This document shows, in pieces, positions 1 through 49,718 of a stretch of DNA of 64,000 nucleotides; position 1 is the first letter of the stretch; each line of letters begins with the position of its first letter. The position numbers were made by a program, and so were the translations under genes. Source of the stretch: Dudresnaya verticillata (lineage: Eukaryota); contig OZ374565.1 of NCBI GenBank assembly GCA_977862235.1, positions 310,001-374,000 on the forward strand, read 5' to 3'. The notes below the pieces were generated by a model, which ran no database searches, was not told where the DNA came from, and saw only the letters and a program-made list of their open reading frames with translations.

Positions 1-439
1 CTTCCTGAGCCTGCTCCGACTCCACGACGGTCTGCTGACCGATAGGCGGAAGCGCGGCTAACGACGCCTTCAACGCCTCGATGGGCCCCGGTGAGCTCAC
101 CCAGTTCGACTCATAGTTGCAAAGGACGTCTTCGACCCAATCCGCGAGACTGTAGAGAGTCAGATGGGTCACCTCCCAATGGACAGCCAAGCGGATGGCG
201 AGACCTCGACGGTTGAATAAGTCCCGAATGGCGGCATCAGCCCTTGCGACGTTTCGCACTCTGGGTGCGTACGGACCCTGGGGCTGTCCCGACACAGTAG
301 TGTCCATCGGCGGCACGTCAGCCGGAGTCGCGGGAGCCTCGCCGGAAGCACTATGCCAGTCTTCGGTGTAACCAGTCATGCGCTCACCGGTGTCAACGAG
401 AAGCGTCTCACCTTCGGCGGGTTGCGGTTGCAGCAGATA

Positions 440-1537
440 CTACGGTAGGAGAGGGTGCCACTGCACCGGGTCGAAGTCGACCCAATCACCACGGTCGTAC
501 ACCGGCGTCACAAACCCGGTATCCTCCGGAAGGTAGCGATTGCGCTTGCTCACACGACTCCAACGAATGCGTTCGACGAACACGAGGAGCGCCTCCAAAT
601 CCGTAGCGTCGACAGCTGTCGTGGTGAGTAGGCCAATTCCAAGTCCCCGGATCTCGGTGCGCAGACGTGCGTTGATGTAATACAAGTACCCCCGACGGGC
701 TTCATACATGAAGGTCTGCGCCACCATCACCACCCATTCGCTACGGAAGATCATCCACAAGAGGCCATGATGATAGCTTTCGTGCATCATATCAAGGCCT
801 CTATACGCCACGACTGGGGGTGTGCCGACAGGCATGGAGTAGGAAACTTCGTACTCACGATGATCCGTGGGAATAGGGACGTACTTCCCCGTGTAGAACT
901 CGGGCTTGATGGCCACCACTTCTTGGCAGTGCGCCGGCACGAAGCACCCGGTCCGATGACGATGACGACGCTCGAAGCGAAGGAGCTCGCGAGACATCAC
1001 TGTCTGCGGATTGTCCAATGCGTACTTGAAGTTGGACGTCTCGTCCCACCACGTAATGCGCGCCATCGTGAATGGATAGTTATCCCGACCGGGGCGGATG
1101 AGTGGTCGTTCAAAAGCGACCAACTCCAGGCTGTAGCCTCCCTTCGCGTGGAACTCAATCAGCTCCGGCATGGACTCCATGAAGGCTTGAGAGTGGTGCT
1201 CCACGTAACGTTGCTCGAAGAGGATGCGCACCATCGCGAGGTCCCACTTGTGGTTCGTTGGCAACGGCGGAAGCGCGATATTGGTCCCTCGCAGGATACC
1301 AATTCGCTCACGAATGAGAAACTCCCACGAGCGGGCTTGAGCGCGATGACGGCCATAACGGCGGATATCTTCACGACGCGCACCGGCGGTGGCCCGAATA
1401 TGGGTGAGGTCCGTTCGGAGCAGCCAGTCGCGGCTCTTCGTGATAGACAAAGGCACACCTGCCGCATCAACGCCAAACCCGAGGACAGCCGAGCTAGAGC
1501 CCGCCTGCCCATACGGGAGGTTGGGAGTCGTCGCCAT
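440..1537 (-). CDS. Antisense accessory ORF (365 aa) in the 3' internal region of an LTR retrotransposon, function unknown
   Basis: ATG-started ORF with globular composition, antisense to the PPT-LTR at 2301-3113. It continues in frame past the TAG (see copy 2). Confidence 0.65.
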   Translation of the reverse strand: MATTPNLPYGQAGSSSAVLGFGVDAAGVPLSITKSRDWLLRTDLTHIRATAGARREDIRRYGRHRAQARSWEFLIRERIGILRGTNIALPPLPTNHKWDLAMVRILFEQRYVEHHSQAFMESMPELIEFHAKGGYSLELVAFERPLIRPGRDNYPFTMARITWWDETSNFKYALDNPQTVMSRELLRFERRHRHRTGCFVPAHCQEVVAIKPEFYTGKYVPIPTDHREYEVSYSMPVGTPPVVAYRGLDMMHESYHHGLLWMIFRSEWVVMVAQTFMYEARRGYLYYINARLRTEIRGLGIGLLTTTAVDATDLEALLVFVERIRWSRVSKRNRYLPEDTGFVTPVYDRGDWVDFDPVQWHPLLP

Positions 1538-2027
1538 GCGGGCCGAAAAGAGTAGTGAAGCGGAGCGCCGCGCGGATGAGATCTTCTACTTGAGTTCTTC
1601 TCCCTGAAGCTTGAAAACTTGAAGGTCTTCTGCCTGAGGTCTTCTACCTGAAAGCTTGAGCCTGAGACTTGATGGTCTTCTCCCTGAGATTCTTGAAGGT
1701 GTAGCAACACCGGCACAACCGGCCGCGCCAACAAGGCGATGAGAAGCGACGGCGAAGCGCGCAGTCGCGTGAGCACCGCTCCGAAGCAGCTCGCGGAAGC
1801 GCCGCTGCGTACGACGCCGTGCAGGGAAGGGCGAGCGCGATTCGCGTTATGAAAGGAAAGACGCGCACGCCGCGTGGGAGTAATGAAGGATGAAGGCCGG
1901 AGGGCGACAAAGGAGGAGAGAGAAGGAAGCCGATGGCGCAGCGCAGCTGGGAACGTTGAAGAGCGTTGAGTTGCTGCGGGCTGTTGATGCCGAGACGTGA
2001 GAAGTCGCAATCGGGTTGCAACCCTTT

Positions 2028-2060
2028 GCTTATATAGCCGCGCCGCCGCGCCAAAATTGG
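2028..2060 (-). promoter_or_regulatory. Candidate antisense promoter (CCAAT + TATA) for the 365-aa ORF
   Basis: The minus strand reads CCAATT about 20 nt before CTATATAAG, about 490 nt upstream of the ATG at 1537. Confidence 0.35.
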
Positions 2061-2312
2061 CTCACGCAAACTCGTGAGCCGCAATGCTCACGAGTCGCCG
2101 ACGTCGAGACGGGCGTGCCCGCACACTGAGGTGATGGCCCGCGATGACACGCATGTAACCCGGGCCTGCACGGCCGCTGGCCCGACTTAATTCCCCACCG
2201 GGCGCGATACATAGACAGACGTTGGGCGCTCAACCGCTCAGGAAGGAGATTTAAGATTCAGAAACCGCCAATCATAGCCTCGCGGGCCGCTTCGGTCTTC
2301 AGAGGGGGGCTG

Positions 2313-3113
2313 TGTGGCAGTATGGACGCTGTCAGCAGAAGGGCTTACAGAAGCGCACTTCTTTTCGCGGGACAGACTGTCCCTTAATCAGGACAGCTGT
2401 CCTTTCATCGCTGTACACGTGGATGACACTTGGGATACACGTGTGTACACGTGGACTTACAGCTGCACACGTGGCATACACGTGGCCTTGTAATGACGCC
2501 AGTTGGGCGTCTCGTATTGGCTGATTTATGACGCGCCGCTGCGCTCCTACTCACGGACGAGGAGCACCTCTGCGCTCAGGGTATCGACAGTGCAGCCGGG
2601 ACCTCGGCTTGCGCACCGGCGCATCCGCCACCAAGTCCCCTAACTGGAATGCATTCCCACTTTTGACTTGTACTGACTGTACTAATCTTTGTATCTATAA
2701 TCGTAGACTAACTTATACCCCCTTTTGGGCTGATAGAGTTTTCGGCTGTCAAGCCCTACTTATGGGCGCCGGAATAGCCGGCGCCCTCAGAATAAACACT
2801 CAGCGGAGTTGTCCGGGAAGTTTCCATCTTTTGGTCGCTCGGACGCTCCGCGCCTGCAGGGGTCGCCCAGTACAGGCCCGGACATCGTACGACAAGTACT
2901 CTACGAAACACCGGGTCGCAACCTCTATACTTTCCTTCAGCCGGTCGCGCCGAGTCTTTACCTTGCTTCCGCACCCCCCCTTTCGGGTCATCAGGGCCCG
3001 CCTTTTCCAAGCCTCTACCAATCCTCCCTCGAGCTACCACCAATTAGCGTGTGACATCGGACAGCTGTCTTTTCTTGTTCTTTGCTGTTTCTGGCCGCTG
3101 CCATACTGCTACA
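2313..3113 (+). mobile_element. 3' LTR (801 bp) of an LTR retrotransposon inserted into gag of another Ty3/gypsy element
   Basis: Termini TGTGGCAGTATGG...CCATACTGCTACA (13-bp inverted repeat, 1 mismatch). Polypurine tract agagggggg at 2301-2309. Gag-like sequence follows immediately. Confidence 0.85.
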
Positions 3114-3439
3114 GCTCACACCGCGGAAGGGCAAGGCTAAGGTTGATAAGAACAACAGGTCCAAAGACGGTCAGAAAGGCAGTGCTACCGACCGGGGAAA
3201 CTCCGTAAACAATGCAGGGAAGGACCGGGAACGTCCTGCGCCTATTTTTCTAAACGAGGTCTGTGCGAAGAAGTGGAAGCTCCATCCTGGAGGGGTTCGT
3301 AATTGCCCGTTCACCGACCCTGAGAAGGCTGAGGCCGTGATCAAGGAACACATTACCCGCAAGTGAGATAAGGCTGAGGAGGCAAGGCAGGTTCGCTTCG
3401 ACCAACAAGACATTTATGTGAATACTACGCTAATGGGAG

Positions 3440-4113
3440 TGTGGTGTAGTAAGCCGAGGCGCGCATGCGGCACGCCGACGGCGAGCGAACCGTAACGGGT
3501 GATGTGGCAATACGCCACGCTGATGATCTGGCAACTGTAATCGTGGCGGGTGTGTGCGCATTACTGTGCACTTGTCTGCATCGCTGTACTGTAAGTGGAG
3601 CGCACCAAACGTAGCAGAGTATTTGTAGTCTTTATTCTTTATTTTTAGTGAGTCTGTGTACAGTGTGTAGAGTAGCGCGCCAGCCAATGAGAATGCTGCG
3701 CATGTCCGTGTCGGAGATTCGGACCAGCAGGGCCAATTCCACCATAGGACCAGACCACTAGGGTCCGGCCCCCACGGACCGGACCGCTCGGTGCCACCCT
3801 GACTTGTATATCAGGGCGGCACCGCAGCGGCTCCTAAGGTAAAGGGGTAAGCAACCTTAGCCCAATCCTTTGCGGTTTTCCCCGCGCCGAGCCCGTTGCA
3901 GTCTACCACCACCACCGTTACGGAGTCCGTCCCGGCACTTGTACCACCCCCTTGTCTGTTGCTTCCGAATATCCGTCTCGGTTAGCCGCTCGCTGTACTC
4001 CCGTTTCGGTGCGAACTGCTCTACCACCCCGTGGAGGTAGTGTTGCTCTCGTCCGTTAAGGAAAGTCAGGCCAGCTGTCCGTCTCGGAGTTCGTTGGTTT
4101 TCACTACACCACA
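3440..4113 (+). mobile_element. Solo LTR (674 bp), TSD GGGAG
   Basis: Ends TGTGGTGTAGT...ACTACACCACA, with GGGAG at 3435-3439 and 4114-4118. Similar to the LTR at 8531-9211. Confidence 0.92.
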
Positions 4114-4239
4114 GGGAGCTACATTCGCTGGGCTAGTGGAACGCACGACGTGTGCTGATGGCGTTTCAGACATAAATTTGATGCCGCCAGGACTGTATGC
4201 CACACTTCTAGAGAAGAGAGCAGACATGTCAGTGAAGAC

Positions 4240-5013
4240 TGTAATATAGACGTCGGGTCGATCCGACGTCTGGTACTTGCTGGTCCGAAGCCGCCAAACA
4301 GACCCGTCGATGGGTAGCTGTTGGGGTTGGTAGAGCGGTGTCGGCCGCGTGCGCCCCGCAGGTGTGGATCGACGACGTCGATGCCGAAGCGCGCACGGGG
4401 CGTACCGTACGTGGGTAGGCAGCGGCCGGATCCCAGCGTTCCTGTCGAAGGGCGGCACGAAGCCGACGGAAAGGAAAAGGAAAGGGGAAAGCCTAGCGAG
4501 GCAAGGTGAAAAAGGGAAACCGCCCGCTGGCGTAAGGCATAGGGATCGAACCCGAAAAGGCTGGGGGCAAGCTTCAGCGCGAGCTGTTGCTTACCCGGTT
4601 TACTGAGCCGTCGATGGCCGACGGTCTTAAATACCCTACACTATGTGCACTACGACTAATTCTACAGTAGGTGCGCCCCACAACACCAACGCGGGAGGTG
4701 TGCGAGCGCGCGCCCATACACGTGTCGACACGTCCGGGTAACGGTTACCCGTGGGCGCGCGCGGGGCGTAACGGGCAGCGGCCCTCTCAACGGCTCGATG
4801 CCGGAGAGTGTCACAGGGGCGCGCCATGTGCGGCACGGCGCGTGGCCGCTGCCGGCAGTAATGCGGTCGACCGCTACTAATTCAACGAAAAAACGAAGGG
4901 CACGCTGCCCAACCACGACTCGCCAGCGGGCGTCATCGTGTGAACCCTTACAGTGCAGAGCTGCCAGCATACCTTACAGCCGCTGCTGGTAGGGTGCTGA
5001 CAGCTATACTACA
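4240..5013 (-). mobile_element. Solo LTR (774 bp), TSD AAGAC
   Basis: Ends TGTAATATAG...CTATACTACA, with AAGAC at 4235-4239 and 5014-5018. Pol-like sequence resumes after it. Orientation is inferred. Confidence 0.9.
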
Positions 5014-6428
5014 AAGACGTTTGAAAAGACAAATAAGTTCGGGCTAGCAGCGTCCGACTGTCATGTCCAGTACAGTAAGGAGGTGTCTCTTGACACCGAA
5101 CTCCACATAAGGCACGGCAAATCACTGATGATACGGAACCTAAAGTGGTATGCGTCAGTCCAGAAAATGAAAGAGCCGTTTTTGGGACGCCCGATTCAAG
5201 AAGCCCTGGGATTAGATGCTAAGAAGATGTTAAAGGCAACGTGCGATAGGTACCGAGGGATGGTAGATGCTAATGATTTAGTAGAAAGCGAGGAGTACGT
5301 AGAAGGTTCGATAGCTAGGATCCTGTCATCGAGACTCTTCCACTCGGACAAGGCAGCGACGGAGGATGATTCCGCAGCAGAAGAAGGGCATTCGATTGAT
5401 CTTGGAATCGATACGCCGGAGGAGCTAGATGCAGCATTTAATAGGATGCTCAGGCAAGCAGAAGAGAATGGGATTAGTCAACCAGGATTGGAATATATGC
5501 GAAAATTGTTGGGCGAGTACTCTGACGTGTTCTGCGTAAGATTAGGCCTCGGGCTGCCAGCGGACGTGGAGCCAATGCAAGTACACATCAAGGAAGGTTT
5601 GGTCCCATATATTGCGAAGGCACGGTGTTAGCCAACTGATCAACGTGCGTTCATGTCGAAGTTTATGAGCAGACTGATCGACTATGGTATGGCAAAGCCC
5701 AACCCGAATGCTGAATGGGCTGCGCCTGCGCTACTGGTCCCGAAGAACCCCCGGCGAAATACAGACTCACTTTCGATCTGAGACGAGTTAATCAGTGTAC
5801 GAAACCCACGACGTGGCCAATGCCACAAATACAGTCCGAGCTCATGGACTTCTCTGGGAGTGGATTCTTCGCGAGTATTGATTTCTGTAACGGATATTGG
5901 CAGATGCCGTTACACCAGGACAGCCAGGCCTATCACAGTTTCCTGACACCTACATGGGCATGTCAGCCGACGAGAACCCTTCAGGGCGCCCAGAACGCCG
6001 CCCAAAACTTCCAGTCAAGGGTGGAACCGTGTTTCAGAGAGTTGAAGGAATTGCTAAAGGCATTGCTCGACGATTTTGCAGTACATAATCGGCCGGAGGC
6101 TGGTCTGATACAAACTCTAAGGTCATTCTTTGAAATATGCAGATAGAGAAACTTGAAGATCTCAGCAAGAAGACGGTATTATTCGCTAGGACACTGCGTT
6201 GGTGCGGATACGTTGTCGACAAGGACGGGGTGGAATGCGACCCGCGTCGGCTCAGCGGCCTGAAGGACGGGCACCCACCCGTCAATGCAGCAGAATTGTC
6301 TCAGTTTGTCAATTGTCTCCAATGCATGAGCGCGTACATCCCAGACTTTGCGCAAAGGATCTTGTGCACAGATCTCGCCACTACGTGATGTACTAGAACG
6401 GTCTCAACTCCTTCAGGAGTAGACTACG

Positions 6429-8515
6429 TTACGGTCTTCTTCGGCGACGAGGTCGTGCGGTGGCCCCACGCCTTGATGGCTTCTCCACCCGGGGATTCTC
6501 TGGGCACAAGGACCCTGGGGTCCTCGCGCCCCTCTCGATCTCGTCAACGCCTACTGGTGTAATCTCGTCAGGGGGTGGACTGTCCAGTCGCCCCTGTAAC
6601 GGATATACACCGGATGGAGTTCCCCACTCGCACGACAACGGAATCCTTGATGGCCCCTCCGTCATGGGGTACAACCTCGAGCGGGAGCGCATCGCGTGCC
6701 AGCTCGACATTTGCTCGTTGATTAACCACACCGGCTCGGGGTCTTCTTCTGACGGGAAATAGGCCATCTCACATCCAGAGTTGAGCGGTGGCAACAACAG
6801 CAGGCCGTCTTCATCCCAATGGTAACCGGTAAACCCTGGGTTCTCTACCATTTGGTTTTCGCGTGGACCGTGAATGAAGAGTCGCTCAACACGCGCCAAA
6901 GGGTATTCGGTCCCCTCGACCAGCCGGGCTACTCCAACTTGGTGTATAAGCGCAACCACCTTGCCGGGAAATTTGAAGATTCGCCCACACTCGCCACCCT
7001 CCGGGTCCGTCCTGTTCCGCGGGTATGCTCTCCAGTCGGTCATCTTCGAATTGGCTCTCATGCCCCGGTAGGTAACCTGTAACCACGAGAAAAGGACGAA
7101 TATTGCCCATTCCGCTCGGCGTATCCGCCCCAACACGGTCATCAGTGGATGGTCAGCTGACTTCTCCCCACCTGGGTGTGCAGCTTGCCAGTCGTGATGC
7201 TGTATAAACCGATTGGAGAAATAAGCCACCACCGTCGGAGTTGGCACTGACAACCAACGGGTGACTTAGTACTCAGCCCTCCAATCCGGAGCGGTGCAGT
7301 ACAGTCGACGATGCGCGCTCCCGGCGCCACCTGGAAAAAATCGTTCGTGTTCCAAGTATGGAGTATCACCCTTCTGAGGTGGCGCACGTCTCTACCCCGC
7401 AACAGGATCCGGTGTTCTTTCGCTGCGTCATCCGCCCACCGTTGCGGATTCCCAAACCAGTGGAAGCCTTGGTAGTACGGCTTCTCGTAGCACAGGAAGA
7501 CGACACGAACTGCAAGGTCTCGCAGTCGATGGGCCAGCGCCAGCAGCCGACACACCTTGTTGGGGTAGCCTTCCTGTTCCTGACACCTCAACCACACGAT
7601 GTCGCAACCGGTTGGAGTCCTCACTCTACAATTTGAGTGGATCCACCTAGCCCTCCACATCTCCTCACGCCGATTCGGGAACCACTTGTTGTTGATTTAC
7701 CCACTGGAGTCCGTTACGGCGCTATAGCGACGTCCCGGGAGGTTGTCACCATCGTTTGCCACGAGCACCGCTACCGGCATGGGGAGGAGGACCATATCAG
7801 GCTCCTCTTCAGTACGCTGCCGCCGGCCGGTACGGTGATCATAGTCCCGACCCGGCAACGTTCTTTCATCGGTGTATCCCGTCGATTCCGCGTGCCCATG
7901 GTAGCTCCCTTGCGTTCCCGGCGTATATGGCAGCGAGCCCGACGGTCCGCCGCCTGCACCCATGTGGAGTGGGGGTGAGGCTACTGCACCTCCAACTTGC
8001 CCATACGGGGGACCCGGCGCGTACGTCTCGTATCGCCGATGCGGAGTTGCCCGACGATAGCCAAGGGACCCCATCGCGGTGTTGCCTTTCGAGGGGCCAA
8101 GCCGTTGTGCCCCCAGCCCCACTTGTCGATCCGGAGGCGGAGTAGGCGTCGTTGGAGCCTCGCCACCATCACGCCGCCTCGGCACCCGCGGGCTTATCGC
8201 ACGTGTCGGCAACGCCGGTGTTGCGCTCGTTGCAGCCACAAACTCCGGCATGGTGTCCGCGGGCTCGCCGCCTTCTCCTTCTTCTGCTTCCGGCCCAGGA
8301 GCCTCTCCCACTAAGGGTGTATGCCGTGTCGGATGGAAGGGGCGCCGTGCGCGGTCAGTGTTACCGCCCGCCATCGCTAGCGGCACACCGGGTTGGACTC
8401 GAGCGTTTGTGGATTTGCCCGAGGTGGAGCGCACTGTTGGTGTTAGTTCCGCTGTTGGATACACCTGAGTGGAGATGCCAAAGACGTGCTGCGGCGCACG
8501 AGGACGTGGCGCCAT
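6429..8515 (-). pseudogene. Disrupted antisense accessory ORF (~690 codons) of a second LTR retrotransposon family
   Basis: ORFs 7697-8515 and 7142-7660 are in frame across one stop, and 6429-7253 follows after a frameshift. The ATG lies a few nt from the PPT. Shares motifs (PxVVAY, RxEW) with the 365-aa ORF. Confidence 0.6.
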
Positions 8516-8530
8516 TGAAGAAGGGGGGTC

Positions 8531-9211
8531 TGTGGTGAAGTGTCCGTTTCGGAGTGCGGACGACGGGCGAGCCGACGTGCGACCGTCGACAACCCGCGCT
8601 CTGCTAAGCGCGCGTCAAAAGCCGAAGCGGGAGTACAGCGACACAGTAGCACTGTATGCCCTGCTGGAGTCTGCGCTCACCACCAATCGGAGCCAAGTAG
8701 TTGATTTATTTGTAATTAGGTAATTGTAATGATGCTGTACAGTACGTAGTGTCAGCCAGCCAATAAGAATGCCGAGCATGTCCGAAACGTTGACCGGGAC
8801 CAGTAGGACCGGACCCACCTGGTGGACCAGACCCATTGGGGTCTGGCCCACACGGACCGGACCGCGGGGCGTATCTCCCAGTATAATAATGGGTGGCCAC
8901 CGCGAGTCCTACAGTAAACGGGTACGCAACCCTGGGCAAAGTGACTCACCCTAAGCCTTACCCTCATACTCCTTTTCGGTTTCCCCTCGCCAGCCCGGTG
9001 CACGGATTCGTCTTACCTCCGTCCCGGCGTAGCTGTCCTGTCACTGTACCGTCCTCCTTGTCCGTTGCGTCCTGTTACTCCTTACAGGTTTTGCCGCTCT
9101 AGGTACTCCCTTCGGTCTACGAACTAAGCTCTACCTCCCCGGTGCCGTGTTAGATCACTCCTTCTTGGGATTGCCTGATCAAATCTCCTTAAAGGTGCGC
9201 CTTTCACTACA
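8531..9211 (+). mobile_element. 3' LTR (681 bp)
   Basis: PPT gaagaagggggg just before TGTGGTGAA, and the end is TTCACTACA. Shares blocks with solo LTR 3440-4113. Confidence 0.82.
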
Positions 9212-9240
9212 GCACATCAAGCGAAAACGTTTTGGCAGTG

Positions 9241-11104: not shown

Positions 11105-14100
11105 CTAAGAACTAGGCTTCACACTCCAATGGACATAGTCGCGTGCCTGGTCCTTAACTAGAGCACGCTTCTCCTGGTCACCAAACTCTTTCTCAAAGTC
11201 CAACCACTTCTTGAAGACGAACTTCATCTTCTTCGAACTGAGTTCTAATGTCGTACATCTTTCGAACAGTTTCCTGGTTACTTCCACACTCTCAGTGTTT
11301 CCGCCTTCGAGGTCTCTTCTGCAGTAGCTTGTCTGCATTTCCAAGTAGATACTCCACAGATCTAACCTCTTTGGAAAGTTGCCGACCAGGGACTCAAAAA
11401 CTGTTCTACCACGTTCAGATGAGCCAAACTTGTACTCAAACTGCGCGAACTTGCATATGACAGCGACATGTTTTCGCTTCTCAAGGCTTTTCAATGCTTT
11501 CTCTAGGCATTGTCGGGCTCCGGAGATATTCCCAGAACTGAAGCGGGCGTTTCCAAGTGATATCCACACCTTCTTTGAACCTCTGAATCGGCGACTGGCT
11601 CTCCGAAGGACTTCATCGGCCAGGCCAGTGCTCGAGGAACGTAGCACAGCTGCAGCCTGCATGTGAAAGCCCTTCATATCAGTGACACGCGCGCACCCGC
11701 GATCGAATACGCGAAACACGGCGGCGCCTCTCTTCGGACCAAACGCATCCGTAACGGTATCGCTTGTGGAATTTGATGCTCCAAACTGAGCTTCCAAGTT
11801 CAAATAAGCAATCCATACATTCATTTGTCAGTTTCTTTTTGGAGACTTATCGTCTCCAGCGCTCGTTCGGCGATAGATCTCGCCTTGTTAACCTGAGATA
11901 GAGACCAACAAAAAGCCATGTATGGAATCCACAAAACCGATGAGTTCGGCTCTCCGACGAGTAGTCGTTCAAAATCCTCTGCTGTCTCGGGGGAGTCTAG
12001 GTTATTCGCAAGAGCCTCCTCGCGCATATTTTCGCTGTCTCTGTCGCCTCCTGTCGTTTTTCTCCCTTTTGTCCCGGGACTTGCGTTTTGTTTGCTCTCC
12101 ATGACCTTCGTTTTCACCCTCCAACTCTGGTTCCTCGTCTTTCTCTTCACGCTTTGTCGCCAGTTCGTCATCTTCGGCAAAGTTGAAGCCTTGTCGAACT
12201 CTAAGTGGGGCAATTTGAGATTTTCTTCGCCTTGAACAGTCGCTAGTTCGATGTCGCCACTCTCGACAGTACAGACATTAGCGCCGGAGCCCTCATCTGA
12301 GCCAGACGAACCCTCCAGTTCACTCTCTCTGTCATTGAATGGTTCGTCTCTGTCAGCATTGCTGTCTTCTCCATCCAAGATTCTCGGAACCATGTCAACA
12401 TCTTCAGCACTCCTTAAGGCTGCTTGACGAGAGTTTTGGTTACTCTCAATAAGGGCATTCATATGGTCTTCATCAAGGCCAGCGGCTTCGAAGTAACATG
12501 TTTTGGTGCCAACCTTAACACCCTTTTCATCGACTTTGATGACAATTGCGTTAACCGTCTGTCCTACACACCATTCCTCATTCGGGTTTTGAATGAAGCG
12601 ATCCTGATCTACCTCAATTTTGTGCAACAACGCAGTAACTTTTTTGGATAGTTCAAGCACCGCGCCATAGTTTCCTATGTGCTTGACAGTCCCCGTCACC
12701 TTGGTTCCCTCCTGCAAGTCTTTGACAGCTGAATTCTCTTTCAATTTCTTCGTTGGGCGCTTTCGCAAGATGAGTGGAATACGTATCTCCCCGTTGTTAC
12801 TCTTGGGTTTGCCGGCCCCCTTCAACAAGCATACCAACCAGAAATTATTCTTCCGGATCCTTGACATAGCCATCCGCGAGGTCACAAAGCAAAACCTGAG
12901 CAGATGCATTTCTTCCGACCGCTACAAAGTACCCTTTCTTGCTCACAACTCTAACAAACCCACGCATTTTCGCTCCCTCTTTGATCAACGGCATGGTGGC
13001 CTTCGTGACGAGTAGATCTCCACCGGAATCCGTGTCACTGGGTCTCACGGAAAGGCATATTGCCCCATCGGCTGAATCGGAATTCGAATCGAGCCCAACC
13101 TTCCGAACCCGAACGACGTCACCTTTCTGAACTGTTTGCATCTTCTGAGCGACCTCACCGAAGTTTACCGCCATGTCACACAGACCTACGGTTCCAAGGG
13201 CGATATTTTTCGCCGTAGCATCACGAGTGAACCACGGGATCTCCACTCGGAGCCCAACTCCTTGCATCACGGCTTGTACTATTCCGTGGAAGAACCCAGG
13301 GTCTTTGCCGTTCTCGGAGAGAGCGCCCCAAATCCGACCATTTTCTTTCTCCTCGACTTCGGTAACCATGCACACTACTTCAGATGCCACCTTTAAATCG
13401 ATAGGGTCCCCTTGGACCCGGCAGCTTACATCCATACAGCATATCGATGCAGACGCGTTCACTGCCACCCGCGTATACGACTGGGTGCGGTCCTCAGACT
13501 TGCCAGAATTAGATTTGCGTAGGCGGGACGACAAGTGGGTTACGAACCCTACCACTTTGCTCCCTTTCGCAATCGCGTGATGCCTCGCTCGTTCTTCTGA
13601 AAGGGAAAGTTCGACCACCACTGGGGTATTCTCTTCACCCTCGCACATGCGACGGCGAATCCCAGAAATGAAGGCATGTTCAACACGGCTTCCGTCCTTC
13701 GGTAGAACAAAACGAGTACTCAGATTGGCAGGGAGAACCCCAAGAGGCATCCCTAATGTTTCCTCCGGAGTGACAAAAGAATGATTGGTCCTGTGCAGAT
13801 GCCCTACAACACCGCGCGCAATCGCCACGAAGCTATGCAGCGGGAAAGTTCGATTTATCTTGCCTTTGATGTGTCTTCCTAGAACCTTCTGCTCCTCTAC
13901 TAAAGATTGTCGAAGCAGTGTCAACGTATCGCCAGTTCTGTCATCGTTGTGTTGGGTTACCTTTTGAGAATGTCGTTGCTGACTCGCCCGAAAACATTTT
14001 CAGTCAATCATAACCAAGTTGCTTCGTATTTCTGCCTTAACCTTGTCGAGCACTGTGCAACGCACAGACGCGCCGAGAGTAATTGACAGCTTGACTGATA

Positions 14101-17100
14101 CAGTGTAACGCCCTGCGCTATAAGCGCATCCTTCCGCTCTGCGAGAAAAGTAGAGAGCGTACTAGAACCTATCTGGTCTAGTTGTCTGTGAGCCGTTGGA
14201 GTAGCCCAGCACAGGGTGAAAGGTCGCAGGTTCGAGTCTCCGAGCGGGAGGCTCGAGCTCTTTTTCCTGACGCGACGCTGCGACTCCGAAACTCGCTACG
14301 ACAGGCGGACTTAGGGCGAAAGCAATAGCGCTCCTAGTCTTCGATCTAGCGACAGCTAGGATCAAGTAGGCACTCTTAACAAGCAGTATGGTTGCGCTGA
14401 ATGGGCTTCCTGCATTCAAAATGGACTTTCCCGCCCCTGCAACCACCTCTTCCTGTCTGGAAAGGAGGTCGATAACACCATAAAAGGGATCCACGTCCAA
14501 GACTCGGACGTTGTCTTCCTTTGATGCTTCACTGCGTTTGGTCTTCTCAGAAAATGCTGATTCTGTGCCGATGCAGGTAGCCAGAGGAAGAGCTTCATCT
14601 CTCATCGCTTCAGAGTCTGGCTGAGTGACATCAAGACATACACCGACTGCAGACTCACCAGCTGTCTGCAACTTGTAAATCACACCATAGCTGTGTTCTG
14701 CATGCACTCGCGCTTGCTCGATTCATCCAATTGCAAACCCCTTCAACACACCTGTCTTGCCAAGGAGGTCTTGCCATTTCTCCAGTGAGCTGAACAACGA
14801 CAAAGTGTCTGCCTCAAGACCAGAAAACCCCACATTGGAGAGTCGAAGGGATAATGAAAAACGCTGTTTCTTCTCGTCGATATTGTCCACCACAGCTGCC
14901 ACACTATTGTGAATCTGCAAAGCTCTAGAAGGGTCACTTAAAAAATGGTCGGCAATGCGAGAGATACGGGTGAAACCTAACGAATCCCCAAGGAACGCAA
15001 CTATCGCCCCAGTACCCAACAGCGCCTTAAGGTAGCCACGCAAAACTGGCTTCTGCTGATCGGTTGTCGTCCTTTCAACAATGCGCTTCACATCATTACA
15101 AGATTTTGGCAATAACCCTTGTGCTGAAGCGGTCTTCAGGCTTGGTTTGAGGGTAAGAACAGGCCTGTCTTCCGAAACAGAAAGGACCATCAGGTCTGAC
15201 AAAGTGATAGGAGAACCTCTTTCTCCTTTCTGGGCTTTGCCAAGAAGGCTTAGAACTTCCTTGACTAGTTGCGGGGCAATCCCGGGGACGTCTGCAATAT
15301 GTCCAAACGGCAGGTAGCATTCCACACTGCCGTTAGAGCTTCCCGATTTTCCTTGCTCGGTGGCCTGGTCTTGAGGCCCACCCTTTGCGGCTGTGGTAAC
15401 AGAATTAGATGGTACCTGTACCGACACTATGAAATGTTTCGCTTGCTCATCTGCAGAGGTGATGTGGCCACCTACAACCTGACCCAGGCTAAGGGTCTTT
15501 TGTTGCAGAAGAGCCTGAAGCACCACGCAAATCCATAGAGATAGTGATGCGCCTTCGCGGAGAGTCAATCTTAGTTAGTTTGACAAACACTGTCTGTCCG
15601 ACAGGGTATACTTCTTTGATATCTGCCAACTGCTCAGCTTGAGTCTTGTTCGTGTCAATGCAAAGCTCGCGAATTGGTGAAAGACCTGCCATGTCTTCAC
15701 AAAAGCAACAAGAACAGACCCGAAATCCAACACTTTGATAACAGATCCCGTGAAAATGCCTTTGGTCGATCAGGTTCAACCAAGTCATCTTCGGATGATC
15801 TCCTTTTGCTAACGACAAGCGACTTCTCGGCCTGCTCGAAGGGAGTAAGAAGTGGATACTTCGGGGAAAATAGGGACTTCTTCGCAGATAAATAGGTCTT
15901 TCCCCTTCCCACGTCGATACCAATGGCTCTGCAACGTATCGTTGCTCCTATCCGCAAATTCTCCAGCATGGCCATTCGCTTCGGGGTCATCGGTACAATA
16001 GAAAGGTGTGCTGCTTGGGTAATACCAAGCAGGTGCGAGTCACCAGCCACAGCTACCGTAACGGCACCCATCGTGGTGTGACTCATCACCTTGCAATCAT
16101 ACAAAGCGCCGACCTCAATCTCCTCAATGGAAAGAGATTTGCGTGCCAGAATACTTCGTCGGAGGACGATGTTAACAAGCCCATCGAATCGTGGCACCGA
16201 AATAACCCTCGCACCATCTTCAACGATCATGCCGGGGTGGTACCTTGATTCGAGTTTGACATCTTTCGAGTCTGAAACTCTGCTTATGTGAGCAAACACT
16301 GGTACAGTACGTGCATTCCAATATTATCCCCAGCGAATTTGGCAGTGTCTTCATCTTTAAGAGTTTCTTCTGCTCCTTCCGCACCGACATAGCTCATTAT
16401 GAGGCCAGACCCGGGTTTCACTCTTTCGACTTTCAGCCGTTTCATGAAACTGCCTATCTTCCACGACTGCGGCACTTCCCGAGGGCGTAGTTCGTCGACC
16501 AGCGAAGGTAGCAGTGAAGAGGCAATGCGCTTCTGCGAGGGGTCCACGTAGAAAATCCGCGCCGTTACCAGCTTGCCGACGTCAACATCCCATGTCCCAT
16601 CCGCCCTTCGCGGAACATGGGACGCATCAACAGACAACTTGGACACCGAAAACGCAGTCAAGGCAACCCCCCAGGACCCTCCTTAACGACGCGTGCGGGA
16701 ACTACCATACCGGCGGTGAGCTCACTGTACGTAAGCCCAGCGGTATCTTCAACGCACGCCTTGATAACCTTCTTCTTCAGTTCCGACACATTGACGACCA
16801 CGGGCAACACTGGACCGTTCTTCCGTTTCTTCTTCCGAGATACATCCGCTTCCACAACAACTTCCACCGGACTACCCATGCGCAATTCCCCCTCGCTCTC
16901 GTCGAACGGAAGAAAGGCCGTGTGCGGCACACCAGACCCGAACGTCAATACATAACCATGGTCCTCAACCGAGCGCACAACTGCGTACAGCGGGGACCCG
17001 CGGCGCGTGACGCGCTTTTCGGACAGGCCGGCATTAACGAGCCCCGGATTCATGGAAACAGTCAGGGCGCGCTTTCCATGGGCATTATGCTCGTTCGAAA

Positions 17101-17150
17101 CAACAGCCACACGCACAGTCTCCCCCGTGCTGACCGCCTCGCATAGGGCG
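11105..17150 (-). pseudogene. RRP5: rRNA biogenesis protein RRP5/PDCD11, multiply frameshifted and apparently 5'-truncated
   Basis: Successive S1-domain fragments, then C-terminal HAT/TPR motifs EDFERLL..PNSSVLWI.YMAF, NVWIAYLNLE, ERGRTVFE..PKRLDLW and KKMKFVFKKWLDFEK, spread over at least 8 ORFs. Confidence 0.9.
14166..14265 (+). other. Possible tRNA-derived/SINE-like insert inside the RRP5 pseudogene
   Basis: A-box-like TGGTCTAGTTG (14174), B-box-like GGTTCGAGTC (14229) and TTTTT (14261). Coincides with loss of the RRP5-like reading frame. Confidence 0.35.
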
Positions 17151-17555
17151 AAGTGGACTGCGCAGAGAATTCTGTTCGGGTGACTACTGCGAGGAGAGTG
17201 ACACCGGGGGCAAGATGGGAGTGTCTCAGCGAGAGGCCGGTGCGGGTTACAGGGAGCGGCGGGTCTGCGTGGTCCGCGGACGGATTTCGTCGTGCGCGTC
17301 GGGCGCGTACGCTTGGACAGAGGTCGCCTTCGGACGAGGGCCTCGGTGCTGGCTTGTTGCGTGATGGCGCCATGTCGTCTCGGACGGGCGCGGGTTGAGG
17401 GCGTTGGGGGCGTCTGGGGGGTGAGCACACGGTTGGCAGTTGGGGGGGAGCAGGAGAGGATATGGTCGGATCAAAAAGCTGAAGGACGGCGAGACCCAAG
17501 CGAGAAGTGGGCAAACAACCCCAGTGGGGAAAAACCTTGAAAAATGTAGAACCGT

Positions 17556-17626
17556 CGTACCTGTCGGGAGTCGAACCCGGTTTCCGGAAATCAACGACAG
17601 CGCCGAAACCACTGTGCCACACGTCC
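17556..17626 (-). pseudogene. tRNA pseudogene or tRNA-derived SINE head
   Basis: Minus strand GGACGTG TGGCACAGTGG ... CCGGGTTCGACTCCCGA CAGGTACG: A box, B box, T-arm, 71 nt long, T5 terminator about 11 nt downstream. Acceptor and anticodon stems are mispaired. Confidence 0.6.
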
Positions 17627-25590: not shown

Positions 25591-25674
25591 GTAATTACTT
25601 TTCCCCGGAGTAGTTTCGTTTTTGTTGACGAAGCGAGATTGTGTTCACGGTGACCAGCACTAGGAGTGCTACGA

Positions 25675-38300: not shown

Positions 38301-38340
38301 CAAGCTTCTTTGTTCACGCTGAACAGAAGCTTGGGGGCAC

Positions 38341-38950: not shown

Positions 38951-41900
38951 AGAGCAATGAGGAAGCGATGATTCTTTTTAATGAATGTGTACGGTGGTCT
39001 TATGCGTGGGGCTGTTCCCGACAGGCAAGCATACCGGTGGGGTTTGGGTCTATCCTATGGAAGGGTTTGAGTTATGTGAGAACCTAAAGGGTTTTTTGGG
39101 GGACCCGAAAGGGTAAATTCGTGCCTGCAGGCGTCTCGGATGGACGAGATTGCACCGACGATGGCGCAGAGATTACATGCGCCAAGTGATGGTAGCGAAA
39201 GGGCTTTCAGAGAATGGGCCAGGAGTTGGGCTTCTTCGTCGAAAAATGGGTACCGAGGCGGGATGAGGAACGTCCAGACGTGCCACTGATTTCCGCTTTC
39301 CTCCTCTGCGGTTCGACAACTTCAAGACAGGTGCTAACCGGTTTGCAGAGTACACAGGGCCAGGGAATCGCCCAGATAATTCCGCAAACCATTCTTGTAG
39401 CAGCGCTTCGCGCAATTCCCTCTGCGCTCCTGTGTGTCGGGGTGCTTGGCACCAAAAACACGTTGTGTAGTCTTAACAGCAAGTGTTATTTGAGCAAGCC
39501 GGGAGCTCAGAAGTTTTGCTACGTCAACAAGGTTTCGTAACCCGCGCGCATCATAGTGCCCTAAAACGTATGCTGAGCGTTAGAAAAGGATGTTCGATGC
39601 GGAAGAGGTCCCTGAGATCCTGCTAACGTGTGGCAGTGGTAACAAAATTGCCGTCAGGAACGCAAAAGCTGCTCTAGAAGTCACTCAGAGGGACACAGGT
39701 GTAGAGAAACCTCGGGGTAGAGGACAGGAGTCCGTCTACAGTACGTTTAATGTGGTGAAGTGGGGTCGGCTGCGTACGAGCGCAGATGAAGTGCCTAGAT
39801 ACGCAGGGTAGTGTGCAATCGCAAGCGTAGGTTCAGATGCCGCAGGTCTTCACTTAGGCTGAAATGTATAGGACTATTGCCGATTGGCATCACAACACTT
39901 TACGTATTTGTACAGACGGACCTACGCTGTATAGCGACTAACTTACCCAAGAGCCGGCAGCTCACACTGTTGCTCAGTCAGCAGTGGCTGCGACGCTTCC
40001 CCGGCTCGGGTTCACGGAGAGCGCCTCTGGGTGGCGCTTCGGCCAAAAGACACAGCCAATCATGGCGGTTTACATTTACGGTGCCGTCACGAAACGCAAA
40101 CCGCGAAGCTCCGCACCAATTACAAAGCGGAGCGCCGCTTAACATTAATTTTGTGCACTCTACAGTACGCACTGTACTCTAATTTATGGGAAAATTCCCC
40201 CGGTCAAGGACACGCGATGGACTCCGCGATAAGTTAGAGCGAGGATGGTATGCCGCGGCACGGAGGGGAAGGGTATTCGGTCAATGCAAAGTTTACTTAG
40301 GCGTTACAACGCGGAAAGGTCCACTAGCTAATCGGGCGCTCCCCCACTCACACCAATCTACTATCCCTAGGGAGCGTCCGATGCGAGCACTACAATGAGG
40401 AAATGACGTCAGTCCGAGTCAGAGTCCATTAGGTCAATGACTTCGTTTGGGCGCAACGGCGGATTCGCAACGGGGCCTTGCCCTGGCATCATGGTCACGC
40501 GACGGACCTCGCGTACCATGCGACGACCGCGGCCGCGCCGAGCTCCGACTCCCCGCGCCGTAACTTCACCACCCGCCTCGCTAGGCCCGGAATCTCCATC
40601 GCCAGACGGCGCGTCACCCTCCTGGACACCCATGTCCTCTTCCTAGAGCTCCTCCTTGAGCAGCAGCTCCGTCTTGACAATAACCTCTTGCGGCTCAGCC
40701 GCCGCCGGGGGAGATTCAACGGCGTTAGCAGGAAGGGTCAGCTCGAGTTGCAAACCATGGCCAGCGGGCACTTCTGGCACGGGTAGGTTGACCGTTACCT
40801 CCATGGGTGAAGAAGTCGGGGCGCTCTCCTCAACGGCTCCTACCGCCAGCTGCGAAGCTGCAGCGGTTGGAGAATTGGTATGCGGACCCGAGGTAGCGAC
40901 GGAAGACCCTTCACGCGGAACAGCGGATGTATCGGCAAGCGTGCCCTCGCGCGGATCCGCACCCTGTCTACCACCGACTGGTGCCACGGGAGCACCCATA
41001 CTTGGCAGCGAAACAGCGCGACTGTCTTGATGACCCAAGCCCAAACGGGAACGGCGCTGAAGTCGCGGGTCTCTTGAAACGGAAGCGGAAGCTGAGGCGC
41101 TCGGCGCGCTCGCCGCAGCTGAAGGATCTGCCACAGCGGAACCCAACACACTCGGCGCGCTCGCCGCAGCCGAAGGGCCTGGAGCCACGGCACTCGTCGG
41201 AGCTTCCTGAGCCTGCTCCGACTCCACGACGGTCTGCTGACCGACAGGCGGAAGCGCGGCTAACGACGCCTTCAACGCCTCGATGGGCCCCGGTGAGCTC
41301 ACCCAGTTCGACTCATAGTTGCAAAGGACGTCTTCGACCCAATCCGCGAGACTGTAGAGAGTCAGATGGGTCACCTCCCAATGGACAGCCAAGCGGATGG
41401 CGAGACCTCGACGGTTGAATAAGTCCCGAATGGCGGCATCAGCCCTTGCGACGTTTCGCACTCTGGGTGCGTACGGACCCTGGGGCTGTCCCGACACAGT
41501 AGTGTCCATCGGCGGCACGTCAGCCGGAGTCGCGGGAGCCTCGCCGGAAGCACTATGCCAGTCTTTGGTGTAACCAGTCATGCGCTCACCGGTGTCAACG
41601 AGAAGCGTCTCACCTTCGGCGGGTTGCGGTTGCAGCAGATACTACGGTAGGAGAGGGTGCCACTGCACCGGGTCGAAGTCGACCCAATCACCACGGTCGT
41701 ACACCGGCGTCACAAACCCGGTGTCCTCCGGAAGGTAGCGATTGCGCTTGCTCACACGACTCCAACGAATGCGTTCGACGAACACGAGGAGCGCCTCCAA
41801 ATCCGTAGCGTCGACAGCTGTCGTGGTGAGTAGGCCAATTCCAAGTCCCCGGATCTCGGTGCGCAGACCTGCGTTGATGTAATACAAGTACCCCCGACGG

Positions 41901-44315
41901 GCTTCATACATGAAGGTCTGCGCCACCATCACCACCCATTCGCTACGGAAGATCATCCACAAGAGGCCATGATGATAGCTTTCGTGCATCATATCAAGGC
42001 CTCTATACGCCACGACTGGGGGTGTGCCGACAGGCATGGAGTAGGAAACTTCGTACTCACGATGATCCGTGGGAATAGGGACGTACTTCCCCGTGTAGAA
42101 CTCGGGCTTGATGGCCACCACTTCTTGGCAGTGCGCCGGCACGAAGCACCCGGTCCGATGACGATGACGACGCTCGAAGCGAAGGAGCTCGCGAGACATC
42201 ACTGTCTGCGGATTGTCCAATGCGTACTTGAAGTTGGACGTCTCGTCCCACCACGTAATGCGCGCCATCGTGAATGGATAGTTATCCCGACCGGGGCGGA
42301 TGAGTGGTCGTTCAAAAGCGACCAACTCCAGGCTGTAGCCTCCCTTCGCGTGGAACTCAATCAGCTCCGGCATGAACTCCATGAAGGCTTGAGAGTGGTG
42401 CTCCACGTAACGTTGCTCGAAGAGGAAGCGCACCATCGCGAGGTCCCACTTGTGGTTCGTTGGCAACGGCGGAAGCGCGATATTGGTCCCTCGCAGGATA
42501 CCAATTCGCTCACGAATGAGAAACTCCCACGAGCGGGCTTGAGCGCGATGACGGCCATAACGGCGGATATCTTCACGACGCGCACCGGCGGTGGCCCGAA
42601 TATGGGTGAGGTCCGTTCGGAGCAGCCAGTCGCGGCTCTTCGTGATAGACAAAGGCACACCTGCCGCATCAACGCCAAACCCGAGGACAGCCGAGCTAGA
42701 GCCCGCCTGCCCATACGGGAGGTTGGGAGTCGTCGCCATGCGGGCCGAAAAGAGTAGTGAAGCGGAGCGCCGCGCGGATGAGATCTTCTACTTGAGTTCT
42801 TCTCCCTGAAGCTTGAAAACTTGAAGGTCTTCTGCCTGAGGTCTTCTACCTGAAAGCTTGAGCCTGAGACTTGATGGTCTTCTCCCTGAGATTCTTGAAG
42901 GTGTAGCAACACCGGCACAACCGGCCGCGCCAACAAGGCGATGAGAAGCGACGGCGAAGCGCGCAGTCGCGTGAGCACCGCTCCGAAGCAGCTCGCGGAA
43001 GCGCCGCTGCGTACGACGCCGTGCAGGGAAGGGCGAGCGCGATTCGCGTTATGAAAGGAAAGACGCGCACGCCGCGTGGGAGTAATGAAGGATGAAGGCC
43101 GGAGGGCGACAAAGGAGGAGAGAGAAGGAAGCCGATGGCGCAGCGCAGCTGGGAACGTTGAAGAGCGTTGAGTTGCTGCGGGCTGTTGATGCCGAGACGT
43201 GAGAAGTCGCAATCGGGTTGCAACCCTTTGCTTATATAGCCGCGCCGCCGCGCCAAAATTGGCTCACGCAAACTCGTGAGCCGCAATGCTCACGAGTCGC
43301 CGACGTCGAGACGGGCGTGCCCGCACACTGAGGTGATGGTCCGCGATGACACGCATGTAACCCGGGCCTGCACGGCCGCTGGCCCGACTTAATTCCCCAC
43401 CGGGCGCGATACATAGACAGACGTTGGGCGCTCAACCGCTCAGGAAGGAGATTTAAGATTCAGAAACCGCCAATCATAGCCTCGCGGGCCGCTTCGGTCT
43501 TCAGAGGGGGGCTGTGTGGCAGTATGGACGCTGTCAGCAGAAGGGCTTACAGAAGCGCACTTCTTTTCGCGGGACAGACTGTCCCTTAATCAGGACAGCT
43601 GTCCTTTCATCGCTGTACACGTGGATGACACTTGGGATACACGTGTGTACACGTGGACTTACAGCTGCACACGTGGCATACACGTGGCCTTGTAATGACG
43701 CCAGTTGGGCGTCTCGTATTGGCTGATTTATGACGCGCCGCTGCGCTCCTACTCACGGACGAGGAGCACCTCTGCGCTCAGGGTATCGACAGTGCAGCCG
43801 GGACCTCGGCTTGCGCACCGGCGCATCCGCCACCAAGTCCCCTAACTGGAATGCATTCCCACTTTTGACTTGTACTGACTGTACTAATCTTTGTATCTAT
43901 AATCGTAGACTAACTTATACCCCCTTTTGGGCTGATAGAGTTTTCGGCTGTCAAGCCCTACTTATGGGCGCCGGAATAGCCGGCGCCCTCAGAATAAACA
44001 CTCAGCGGAGTTGTCCGGGAAGTTTCCATCTTTTGGTCGCTCGGACGCTCCGCGCCTGCAGGGGTCGCCCAGTACAGGTCCGGACATCGTACGACAAGTA
44101 CTCTACGAAACACCGGGTCGCAACCTCTATACTTTCCTTCAGTCGGTCGCGCCGAGTCTTTACCTTGCTTCCGCACCCCCCCTTTCGGGTCATCAGGGCC
44201 CGCCTTTTCCAAGCCTCTACCAATCCTCCCTCGAGCTACCACCAATTAGCGTGTGACATCGGACAGCTGTCTTTTCTTGTTCTTTGCTGTTTCTGGCCGC
44301 TGCCATACTGCTACA
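38951..44315 (+). mobile_element. 5'-truncated LTR retrotransposon: internal region with antisense ORF plus 3' LTR (43515-44315)
   Basis: PPT and LTR as at 2301-3113. No matching 5' LTR in the window. The left boundary is inferred. Confidence 0.6.
40409..42739 (-). pseudogene. Single ~776-codon antisense ORF interrupted by two in-frame TAG codons
   Basis: ORFs 41642-42739, 40643-41581 and 40409-40633 share one frame, with stop-free gaps of 60 and 9 nt. Confidence 0.7.
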
Positions 44316-47630: not shown

Positions 47631-49718
47631 TTACGGTCTTCTTCGGCGACGAGGTCGTGCGGTGGCCCCACGCCTTGATGGCTTCTCCACCCGGGGATTC
47701 TCTGGGCACAAGGACCCTGGGGTCCTCGCGCCCCTCTCGATCTCGTCAACGCCTACTGGTGTAATCTCGTCAGGGGGTGGACTGTCCAGTCGCCCCTGTA
47801 ACGGATATACACCGGATGGAGTTCCCCACTCGCACGACAACGGAATCCTTGATGGCCCCTCCGTCATGGGGTACAACCTCGAGCGGGAGCGCATCGCGTG
47901 CCAGCTCGACATTTGCTCGTTGATTAACCACACCGGCTCGGGGTCTTCTTCTGACGGGAAATAGGCCATCTCACATCCAGAGTTGAGCGGTGGCAACAAC
48001 AGCAGGCCGTCTTCATCCCAATGGTAACCGGTAAACCCTGGGTTCTCTACCATTTGGTTTTCGCGTGGACCGTGAATGAAGAGTCGCTCAACACGCGCCA
48101 AAGGGTATTCGGTCCCCTCGACCAGCCGGGCTACTCCAACTTGGTGTATAAGCGCAACCACCTTGCCGGGAAATTTGAAGATTCGCCCACACTCGCCACC
48201 CTCCGGGTCCGTCCTGTTCCGCGGGTATGCTCTCCAGTCGGTCATCTTCGAATTGGCTCTCATGCCCCGGTAGGTAACCTGTAACCACGAGAAAAGGACG
48301 AATATTGCCCATTCCGCTCGGCGTATCCGCCCCAACACGGTCATCAGTGGATGGTCAGCTGACTTCTCCCCACCTGGGTGTGCAGCTTGCCAGTCGTGAT
48401 GCTGTATAAACCGATTGGAGAAATAAGCCACCACCGTCGGAGTTGGCACTGACAACCAACGGGTGACTTAGTACTCAGCCCTCCAATCCGGAGCGGTGCA
48501 GTACAGTCGACGATGCGCGCTCCCGGCGCCACCTGGAAAAACTCGTTCGTGTTCCAAGTATGGAGTATCACCCTTCTGAGGTGGCGCACGTCTCTACCCC
48601 GCAACAGGATCCGGTGTTCTTTCGCTGCGTCATCCGCCCACCGTTGCAGATTCCCAAACCAGTGGAAGCCTTGGTAGTACGGCTTCTCGTAGCACAGGAA
48701 GACGACACGAACTGCAAGGTCTCGCAGTCGATGGGCCAGCGCCAGCAGCCGACACACCTTGTTGGGGTAGCCTTCCTGTTCCTGACACCTCAACCACAAC
48801 GATGTCGCAACCGGTTGGAGTCCTCACTCTACAATTTGAGTGGATCCACCTAGCCCTCCACATCTCCTCACGCCGATTCGGGAACCACTTGTTGTTGATT
48901 TACCCACTGGAGTCCGTTACGGCGCTATAGCGACGTCCCGGGAGGTTTTCACCATCGTTTGCCACGAGCACCGCTACCGGCATGGGGAGGAGGACCATAT
49001 CAGGCTCCTCTTCAGTACGCTGCCGCCGGCCGGTACGGTGATCATAGTCCCGACCCGGCAACGTTCTTTCATCGGTGTATCCCGTCGATTCCGCGTGCCC
49101 ATGGTAGCTCCCTTGCGTTCCCGGCGTATATGGCAGCGAGCCCGACGGTCCGCCGCCTGCACCCATGTGGAGTGGGGGTGAGGCTACTGCACCTCCAACT
49201 TGCCCATACGGGGGACCCGGCGCGTACGTCTCGTATCGCCGATGCGGAGTTGCCCGACGATAGCCAAGGGACCCCATCGCGGTGTTGCCTTTCGAGGGGC
49301 CAAGCCGTTGTGCCCCCAGCCCCACTTGTCGATCCGGAGGCGGAGTAGGCGTCGTTGGAGCCTCGCCACCATCACGCCGCCTCGGCACCCGCGGGCTTAT
49401 CGCACGTGTCGGCAACGCCGGTGTTGCGCTCGTTGCAGCCACAAACTCCGGCATGGTGTCCGCGGGCTCGCCGCCTTCTCCTTCTTCTGCTTCCGGCCCA
49501 GGAGCCTCTCCCACTAAGGGTGTATGCCGTGTCGGATGGAAGGGGCGCCGTGCGCGGTCAGTGTTACTGCCCGCCATCGCTAGCGGCACATCGGGTTGGA
49601 CTCGAGCGTTTGTGGATTTGCCCGAGGTGGAGCGCACTGTTGGTGTTAGTTCCGCTGTTGGATACACCTGAGTGGAGATGCCAAAGACGTGCTGCGGCGC
49701 ACGAGGACGTGGCGCCAT
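47631..49718 (-). pseudogene. Disrupted antisense accessory ORF (copy 2, one extra frameshift near 48799)
   Basis: Duplicate of 6429-8515 with a 1-nt insertion. Confidence 0.6.

Follow-up and report, generated by a model that had tools for sequence, protein, structure and literature searches.

The window analysed here is a stretch of 64,000 nucleotides (nt) of eukaryotic DNA from Dudresnaya verticillata (NCBI GenBank assembly GCA_977862235.1, contig OZ374565.1, positions 310,001 to 374,000 of the forward strand), in which a gene with two vWA domains and a gene with HAT/TPR repeats lie next to nested long terminal repeat (LTR) elements. Two of these, elements A and B, each end in a polypurine tract (PPT) followed by a TG...CA LTR, the arrangement of Ty3/gypsy retrotransposons, and each carries an antisense open reading frame (ORF) upstream of that tract. 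Profile comparisons show that these frames, ORF-A and ORF-B, are homologous, broken members of one unnamed protein family, which is very probably an antisense accessory protein family of retrotransposons. Bases 1-23115 are repeated at 41203-64000 with 99.7% identity, a 41.2-kb tandem duplication, and the second copies of ORF-A and ORF-B are therefore not independent evidence; the two copies of ORF-A differ by 4 bases.

The polarity of elements A and B is set by a third element, C (24978-38950), since a similar G-run directly precedes the 3' LTR of C and its pol lies on the plus strand. By this PPT and LTR polarity ORF-A is antisense to its element, and in element B the order is seen directly as pol, ORF-B (antisense), PPT and LTR, with pol on the sense strand (RVT_1, E 5e-09). 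The initial annotation had placed both ORFs antisense and upstream of a PPT and of 3' LTRs of dissimilar sequence; this is borne out, LTR-A and LTR-B showing no likeness (z -0.2 against 20 shuffles). Two other readings of ORF-A were rejected. A sense gene of a minus-strand element is contradicted by the G-run, which is on the plus strand as in elements B and C, and a plus-strand frame of 307 amino acids (aa) at 632-1555 mirrors the codon pattern of ORF-A, whose relatives match the minus frame.

Element A is taken to lie inside the gag of element B because the end of a gag-like frame of B comes next after LTR-A. The position of that frame and its likeness to element C suggest its gag identity, and it has no Pfam match. 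The pol of element B is 31-48% identical to that of element C, where reverse transcriptase (RT) is followed by RNase H and the integrase zinc domain; element B stops after RT. Neither 5' LTR is in the window, where no second LTR-A or LTR-B was seen besides the tandem duplicate, and upstream of ORF-A no pol-like match was found in 38951-40643; element A has either lost its 5' part or is non-autonomous. The features are collected in Table 1.

Table 1. Positions of the two antisense ORFs, their duplicates and the surrounding parts of elements A and B in the window
Feature	Position	Strand	Remarks
Start of ORF-A in-frame tail	1..439	-	runs past window edge
In-frame TAG, ORF-A core/tail boundary	440..442	-	putative premature stop
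ORF-A core	443..1537 (ATG 1537)	-	365 aa (P0001); family domain about residues 25-364
ATG-free 491-nt leader, candidate 5' untranslated region of antisense mRNA	1538..2028	-	0 ATG
TATA-like box, candidate internal antisense promoter	2029..2036	-	sole TATA[AT]A[AT] match on element A minus strand
Element A PPT	2301..2309	+	G-run 3 nt before LTR, as in elements B and C
Element A 3' LTR (LTR-A)	2313..3113	+	TG...CA, inverted termini; inside gag of element B
Element B gag 3' end	3114..3366	+	ends TGA; same CGCAAG-TGA context as element C
Solo LTR in element B	3440..4113	+	5-bp target duplication GGGAG; 63% like LTR-B
Element B protease-RT region	4119..6420 (right end approximate)	+	broken, cut before RNase H/integrase
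Second solo LTR-like insertion in element B	4242..5012		target duplication AAGAC
ORF-B core and C-terminal part	6429..7696	-	divergent member; pieces 7334-7696, frameshift near 7333, 7269-7331, stop 7266-7268, 6432-7265 (278 aa)
ORF-B N-terminal low-complexity frame	7697..8515	-	272 aa (7700-8515); in frame with core, split from it by TGA 7697-7699
Element B PPT	8517..8528	+	G-rich, before LTR-B
Element B 3' LTR (LTR-B)	8531..9216	+	unalike LTR-A
ORF-A duplicate with full 332-aa low-complexity tail	40643..42739	-	698 positions read through, X at stop
ORF-B duplicate	47631..49718	-	6 differences, one a 1-base insertion

Each ORF had been described as fused to a low-complexity region, at the C-terminus in one and at the N-terminus in the other. 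In both, an in-frame stop splits this region from the core, and the join finds support for the tail of ORF-A but not for the head of ORF-B. Beyond the ORF-A stop, 332 codons are open in frame, a length equalled in none of 1000 dinucleotide shuffles, and the tail matches the continuation of the relative P0022 (E 0.0006). Among relatives that reach the end of the domain, 88 of 117 extend more than 60 aa further and 9 of 117 end within 10 aa. Because the tail matches P0022 and so many relatives run on, the ORF-A stop is most likely premature. The head of ORF-B is likewise open in only 2 of 1000 dinucleotide shuffles, and its fusion to the core was seen in no relative, upstream extensions in the family ranging from 0 to 418 aa. 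The damage to ORF-B amounts to two stops and one frameshift; in the alignment the C-terminal motif block of the family is missing from it, and it adjoins the cut RT of element B, so that a deletion probably took out RNase H and integrase of the element. Just past the end of the ORF-A tail lies an LTR-like stretch (39751-40395), the first 12 bases of which equal those of LTR-B; it is otherwise unlike (z 2.2), and no target duplication was seen.

The motifs that the initial annotation had quoted for the 365-aa ORF are all present in ORF-A. Direct alignment of ORF-A and ORF-B, which it had proposed as a check, is marginal at the local level and not significant semi-globally: BLASTP gives a best E of 0.28, 5 of 2000 shuffles attain the Smith-Waterman score of 56 under BLOSUM62 (75/2000 and 9/2000 under two other settings), and semi-global scores are reached by 287/500 and 29/500 shuffles. 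Aligned residues are identical at 34 of 203 positions (17%). Homology, as first suggested from shared motifs, is established instead by profile similarity. A hidden Markov model (HMM) built from 132 relatives with at least 120 aligned residues, both ORF-A and ORF-B being left out, gives 230 bits for ORF-A and 40.3 bits (E 6.5e-12) for ORF-B; outside the family, none of the 642 six-frame pieces of the window exceeds 3.6 bits. A longer profile from 59 relatives spans residues 25-364 of ORF-A, and both ORF-B frames match it separately and in order. Among the proteins compared, the nearest relatives of ORF-B, P0140 and P0136 (E ~1e-12), were both first found as relatives of ORF-A, and a four-sequence profile of their group gives ORF-B 70 bits and reversed ORF-B -3.8.

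The family is a large one. A HMMER scan of 1.84 billion representative sequences with ORF-A returned 160 relatives at E ≤ 1e-3 (150 of them listed) and 59 at E ≤ 1e-10, which, together with the profile match of ORF-B, upholds the proposal of a conserved, uncharacterised family common to two elements with unalike LTRs. In a tree of 120 of 159 rows, restricted to those that cover at least 105 of 130 core columns, ORF-A and ORF-B fall in separate supported clades (support 0.99 for that of ORF-B) at a patristic distance of 5.1. Across clusters sharing less than 50% identity, conservation reaches 80% or more in 22 columns. Numbered as in ORF-A, these comprise W38, R78, D99, R104, E108, Y111, E189, R190, R193, E206 and P223 in the first half, E230, P240, Y245, W261, E267, L285, W326, P345, G350 and D351 in the second half, and a Gly that lies past the ORF-A stop; none is Cys or His. 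Because these columns persist at such divergence, the family appears to be under selection at the protein level, and this conservation extends across element families.

Members consist of a conserved domain of about 330 aa followed by a variable Ala/Ser/Gly/Pro-rich tail. No Pfam family was matched by ORF-A or the ORF-B pieces (E ≤ 1 or 0.5), nor by any of 63 relatives at E ≤ 0.001; at E ≤ 1, 17 relatives gave three weak single matches, neither Transposase_28 nor the plant mobile domain (PMD). The sequences suggest a soluble protein in which membrane segments are essentially absent: a 19-residue hydropathy window exceeds 1.9 in 2 of 159 sequences, neither of them ORF-A (maximum 1.39) nor ORF-B (1.36). 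Of 68 long relatives, 19 contain the basic, import-like motif K[KR]x[KR], where shuffles would give 10; basic residues cluster within the final 40 aa in 8, where 3.3 would be expected. A helical module of the tail, seeded from P0043, gathered 15 of 84 tails, that of ORF-A not among them, and a family-wide second domain was dropped as a candidate. In look, this small module may be SAP/HeH-like.

Modelling with AlphaFold2 on 124 sequences predicts a compact, mostly helical fold for the ~330-aa family domain (mean predicted local distance difference test score, pLDDT, 85; predicted template modelling score, pTM, 0.86), whereas a single-sequence model without alignment reached a pLDDT of 33 and was unusable. 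The structural comparison advised at the outset gave no match: Foldseek with the pLDDT-85 model returned best E values of 7.0 in the PDB and 4.0 in BFVD. Among 48,161 chains compared by VIA-align none reached Z ≥ 5, the best Z being 3.1 (root-mean-square deviation 3.3, 69 aligned), in a method where models without clear match typically reach Z 7-8. An absent match says nothing on whether folds differ or whether this one is new, and this applies also to Gag/capsid, VANC, Rev and CERV. A two-copy complex prediction for ORF-A scored 0.00; the alignment was unused and the fold of the chain itself uncertain, so the score is no evidence either way. Further searches by sequence added little. A word-index protein search found nothing with ORF-A at E ≤ 0.01 and one match with alignment A1, blanks that carry little weight because the same tool missed the family found by the full HMMER scan. 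The ESM Atlas held no usable match for ORF-A or for P0026 1-345, the PDB none by sequence and by profile a best E of 0.33, on low-complexity tails, while PHROGs gave 0 of 17 and phage records no match.

An unnamed family thus fills a known layout, in which an extra antisense ORF separates pol from the 3' LTR. Such ORFs, termed aORF-3R, are reported from plant Ty3/gypsy elements such as maize Grande (gene23), rice RIRE2 and Silene Retand (PMC7264820; PMC11963269), and the order in element B supports the match in slot that had been drawn with them. The present family resembles them in position, in antisense orientation, in being shared across diverged element families, in a candidate promoter of its own and in coding for a protein without assigned function. 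It differs in having no match to Transposase_28 (PF04195), reported in 97% of Retand clusters (there as TRP28), or to any other Pfam family, and in a host that appears to be a non-plant eukaryote, presumably a red seaweed. In the Tat lineage, eORFs are described as carrying a PMD and a coiled coil (PMC4408406); these too are antisense ORFs at the element's 3' end, in which a folded domain leads into a C-terminal part that varies, but no PMD match was found in ORF-A, ORF-B or the 63 relatives. Outside land plants the same layout is reported for the antisense ORF of Boty in Botrytis and Sclerotinia (PMC7264820), which we liken to the present case by layout alone. VANC proteins are anti-silencing proteins of VANDAL DNA transposons that target tandem motifs in their own element (PMC5735166). 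They share with the present family the proposed action in trans of a transposon-encoded accessory protein, and differ in belonging to DNA transposons and in having target motifs within the element. Finally, CERV of the Caenorhabditis elegans element Cer1, translated from a spliced element mRNA and tested for a role in RNA export (PMC10309623), is likewise a novel protein that an LTR retrotransposon carries as an accessory.

The best overall explanation, on which our judgement is evenly balanced, is that ORF-A and ORF-B are broken family members before 3' LTRs, and that the intact protein is a soluble nuclear regulator that aids expression of its own element. Taken alone, the nuclear-regulator mechanism falls a little short of that balance. 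In element A, a TATA-like box and an ATG-free leader suggest that the ORF would be transcribed from its own antisense promoter. In element B the ATG lies 16 bases from LTR-B, and because it is so close any promoter of ORF-B would sit in the LTR. The folded domain would recognise the DNA, chromatin or RNA of the element, or a host silencing factor, and the disordered tail may recruit partners. The protein would work in trans and, because the related element C is without a family ORF, would be dispensable for the basic gag-pol cycle; the stops and the frameshift may represent decay after insertion. Promoter, localisation and target are proposed chiefly by analogy with maize Grande gene23, for which a promoter of its own in antisense and a nuclear product are reported (PMC7264820).

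Several observations weigh against this explanation. At several conserved columns ORF-B differs from the rest of the family, the whole C-terminal motif block among them. The median net charge of the core is close to neutral (+1, range -13 to +12, n=77) and no Cys or His is conserved in it, which speaks little for a simple DNA binder, although the initial annotation had put forward DNA binding as possible beside anti-silencing. Basic motifs are enriched no more than about twofold, and K[KR]x[KR] is missing from 49 of the 68 long relatives. The leader of ORF-A is suggestive only, because 137 of 1000 dinucleotide shuffles (10/1000 base shuffles) are also free of ATG, and TATA[AT]A[AT] is not matched anywhere on element B's minus strand.

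The link to LTR elements itself rests on two loci, one of which, element A, has no adjoining pol. Contig scans that looked for narrow peptide patterns in viral (5), metagenome (2) and prokaryote-genome (2) sequence found no family locus. In the 33-member cluster P0182, identity among the 14 members compared spans 79-99% (median 91%) and truncated members are numerous, which is indirectly what would be expected of dispersed, decaying copies. Against this, three of the five clusters compared have a median identity of at least 97%, and spread and truncation within clusters could also be explained by host strains or assembly errors.

Among the alternatives, the one that survives best retains the same origin of the gene and has its protein handle the RNA or particle of the element, in export, packaging or nuclear entry, like Rev or CERV. 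We consider it unlikely. The Arg-rich conserved helix E189-R190-x2-R193 (ORF-A numbering) and the disordered tail would suit it, and CERV, as reported, is a case of a novel protein for RNA export encoded by an LTR element; CERV, however, comes from spliced element mRNA and not from an antisense 3' ORF (PMC10309623). Moreover, gag, protease, RT, RNase H and an integrase zinc domain are all present in element C without a family ORF, so the core cycle can do without the family protein.

Somewhat less likely still, the folded domain could be an enzyme, for example with chromatin marks, small RNAs or a defence protein of the host as its substrate. Its size of about 330 aa is compatible with this, the near-invariant D99, R104, E108, E189, E206, E230, E267 and D351 could line an active site, and enzyme-like accessory genes are reported in red-algal DNA transposons (10.1101/2025.02.11.637652). 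Yet no column is invariant in alignments of 109 and 124 rows, the charged residues could equally form structural salt bridges, and ORF-A, the ORF-B pieces and the 63 relatives are without any Pfam match.

That the gene restrains its own element, by copy-number control or interference through protein or antisense RNA, appears improbable. Antisense transcripts of such ORFs can, as reported, pair with element RNA as double-stranded RNA (PMC7264820), and element C is without the ORF, but the deep conservation and well-predicted fold argue for a protein under selection and thus against an action through RNA alone. Marginally more improbable is the chance capture, twice, of an ordinary multi-copy host gene or of a gene from another mobile element. 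PAG1, an accessory gene of red-algal Plavaka DNA transposons, is reported to move between transposable element families (10.1101/2025.02.11.637652); against capture, two members as far apart as a patristic distance of 5.1 share slot and strand ahead of a PPT, and the looked-up sources of relatives (28 clusters and 8 further matches) are all ENA, Logan or JGI assemblies, with one named member, a 'hypothetical protein'. An env-like membrane or infectivity protein, for which the slot between pol and the 3' LTR is also a reported home (PMC7264820), is largely refuted by the antisense orientation and the low hydropathy of both ORFs and of nearly all relatives, and is scarcely credible.

The initial annotation had suggested the family as a trans factor for the motif array at 30920-33435, which the sequences do not support: GTCAY..ACGTT occurs 21 times in 30900-33500 and is absent from element A, element B (5013-9211) and 15.2 kb of host sequence, and the array lies inside a separate insertion (28509-35606) that has no family match. 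The five CACGTG boxes of LTR-A (2410-2490) and the four GGACC[AG]G repeats on the plus strand of element B, clustered in its LTR (8790-8870), are motif clusters specific to each element and better candidates for cis targets than the distant array. The insertion itself, 7.1 kb long and placed in the RT of element C, has TG...CA ends and a 5-bp duplication, AGCAC, which resembles the products of LTR integrases. Its 435-bp terminal repeats are inverted, not direct, and 98% identical, and it holds internal repeats besides the motif array.

No paper describing the family turned up among the literature listings searched; the supplements of the Bostrychia preprint (PAG1 sequences and table) may bear on its novelty, and Repbase, reported to hold 1181 Chondrus families (PMC4455052), may already annotate the family ORF. 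What the extra antisense ORFs of LTR retrotransposons do is described as an open question (PMC7264820; PMC11963269), and the family offers a tractable handle on it outside land plants, with a deep alignment, near-invariant residues, a confident model, many full-length members and, in element C, a related element without the gene for comparison. Should the family counter silencing, it would also serve as a probe of host transposon silencing, called unexplored in red macroalgae (10.1101/2025.02.11.637652). More tentatively, and in our view doubtfully, it may be an old, large antisense family (at least 160 clusters below 50% identity) spread across an algal Ty3/gypsy lineage, with a ~330-aa fold not yet solved, and act as an element-specific anti-silencing or RNA-handling factor, an LTR-element equivalent of VANC or Rev with an origin separate from that of the plant and fungal examples.

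Some further features of the elements and their surroundings were noted. In elements B and C gag ends in CGCAAG-TGA (3364-3366; 27404-27406), in frame with protease, despite the 31-48% identity of their pol, which suggests that Gag-Pol is made by reading through a stop codon, as a conserved trait, and not by frameshifting. Minus-strand LTR-like repeats from 9241 and at 25943-26677 are related to LTR-A (z 13 and 9, respectively). The 41.2-kb near-perfect tandem duplication takes in host genes and may be a recent event or two haplotypes assembled together. On the minus strand, 11105-17700 holds a gene with a HAT/TPR end, apparently split over several frames via introns or decay, which may be RRP5-like, with S1-like repeats. 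The minus-strand gene at 18122-20182 has its two vWA domains linked by a 60-bp Pro/Ser/Thr tandem repeat, about 318 bp of which are lost in the duplicate copy.

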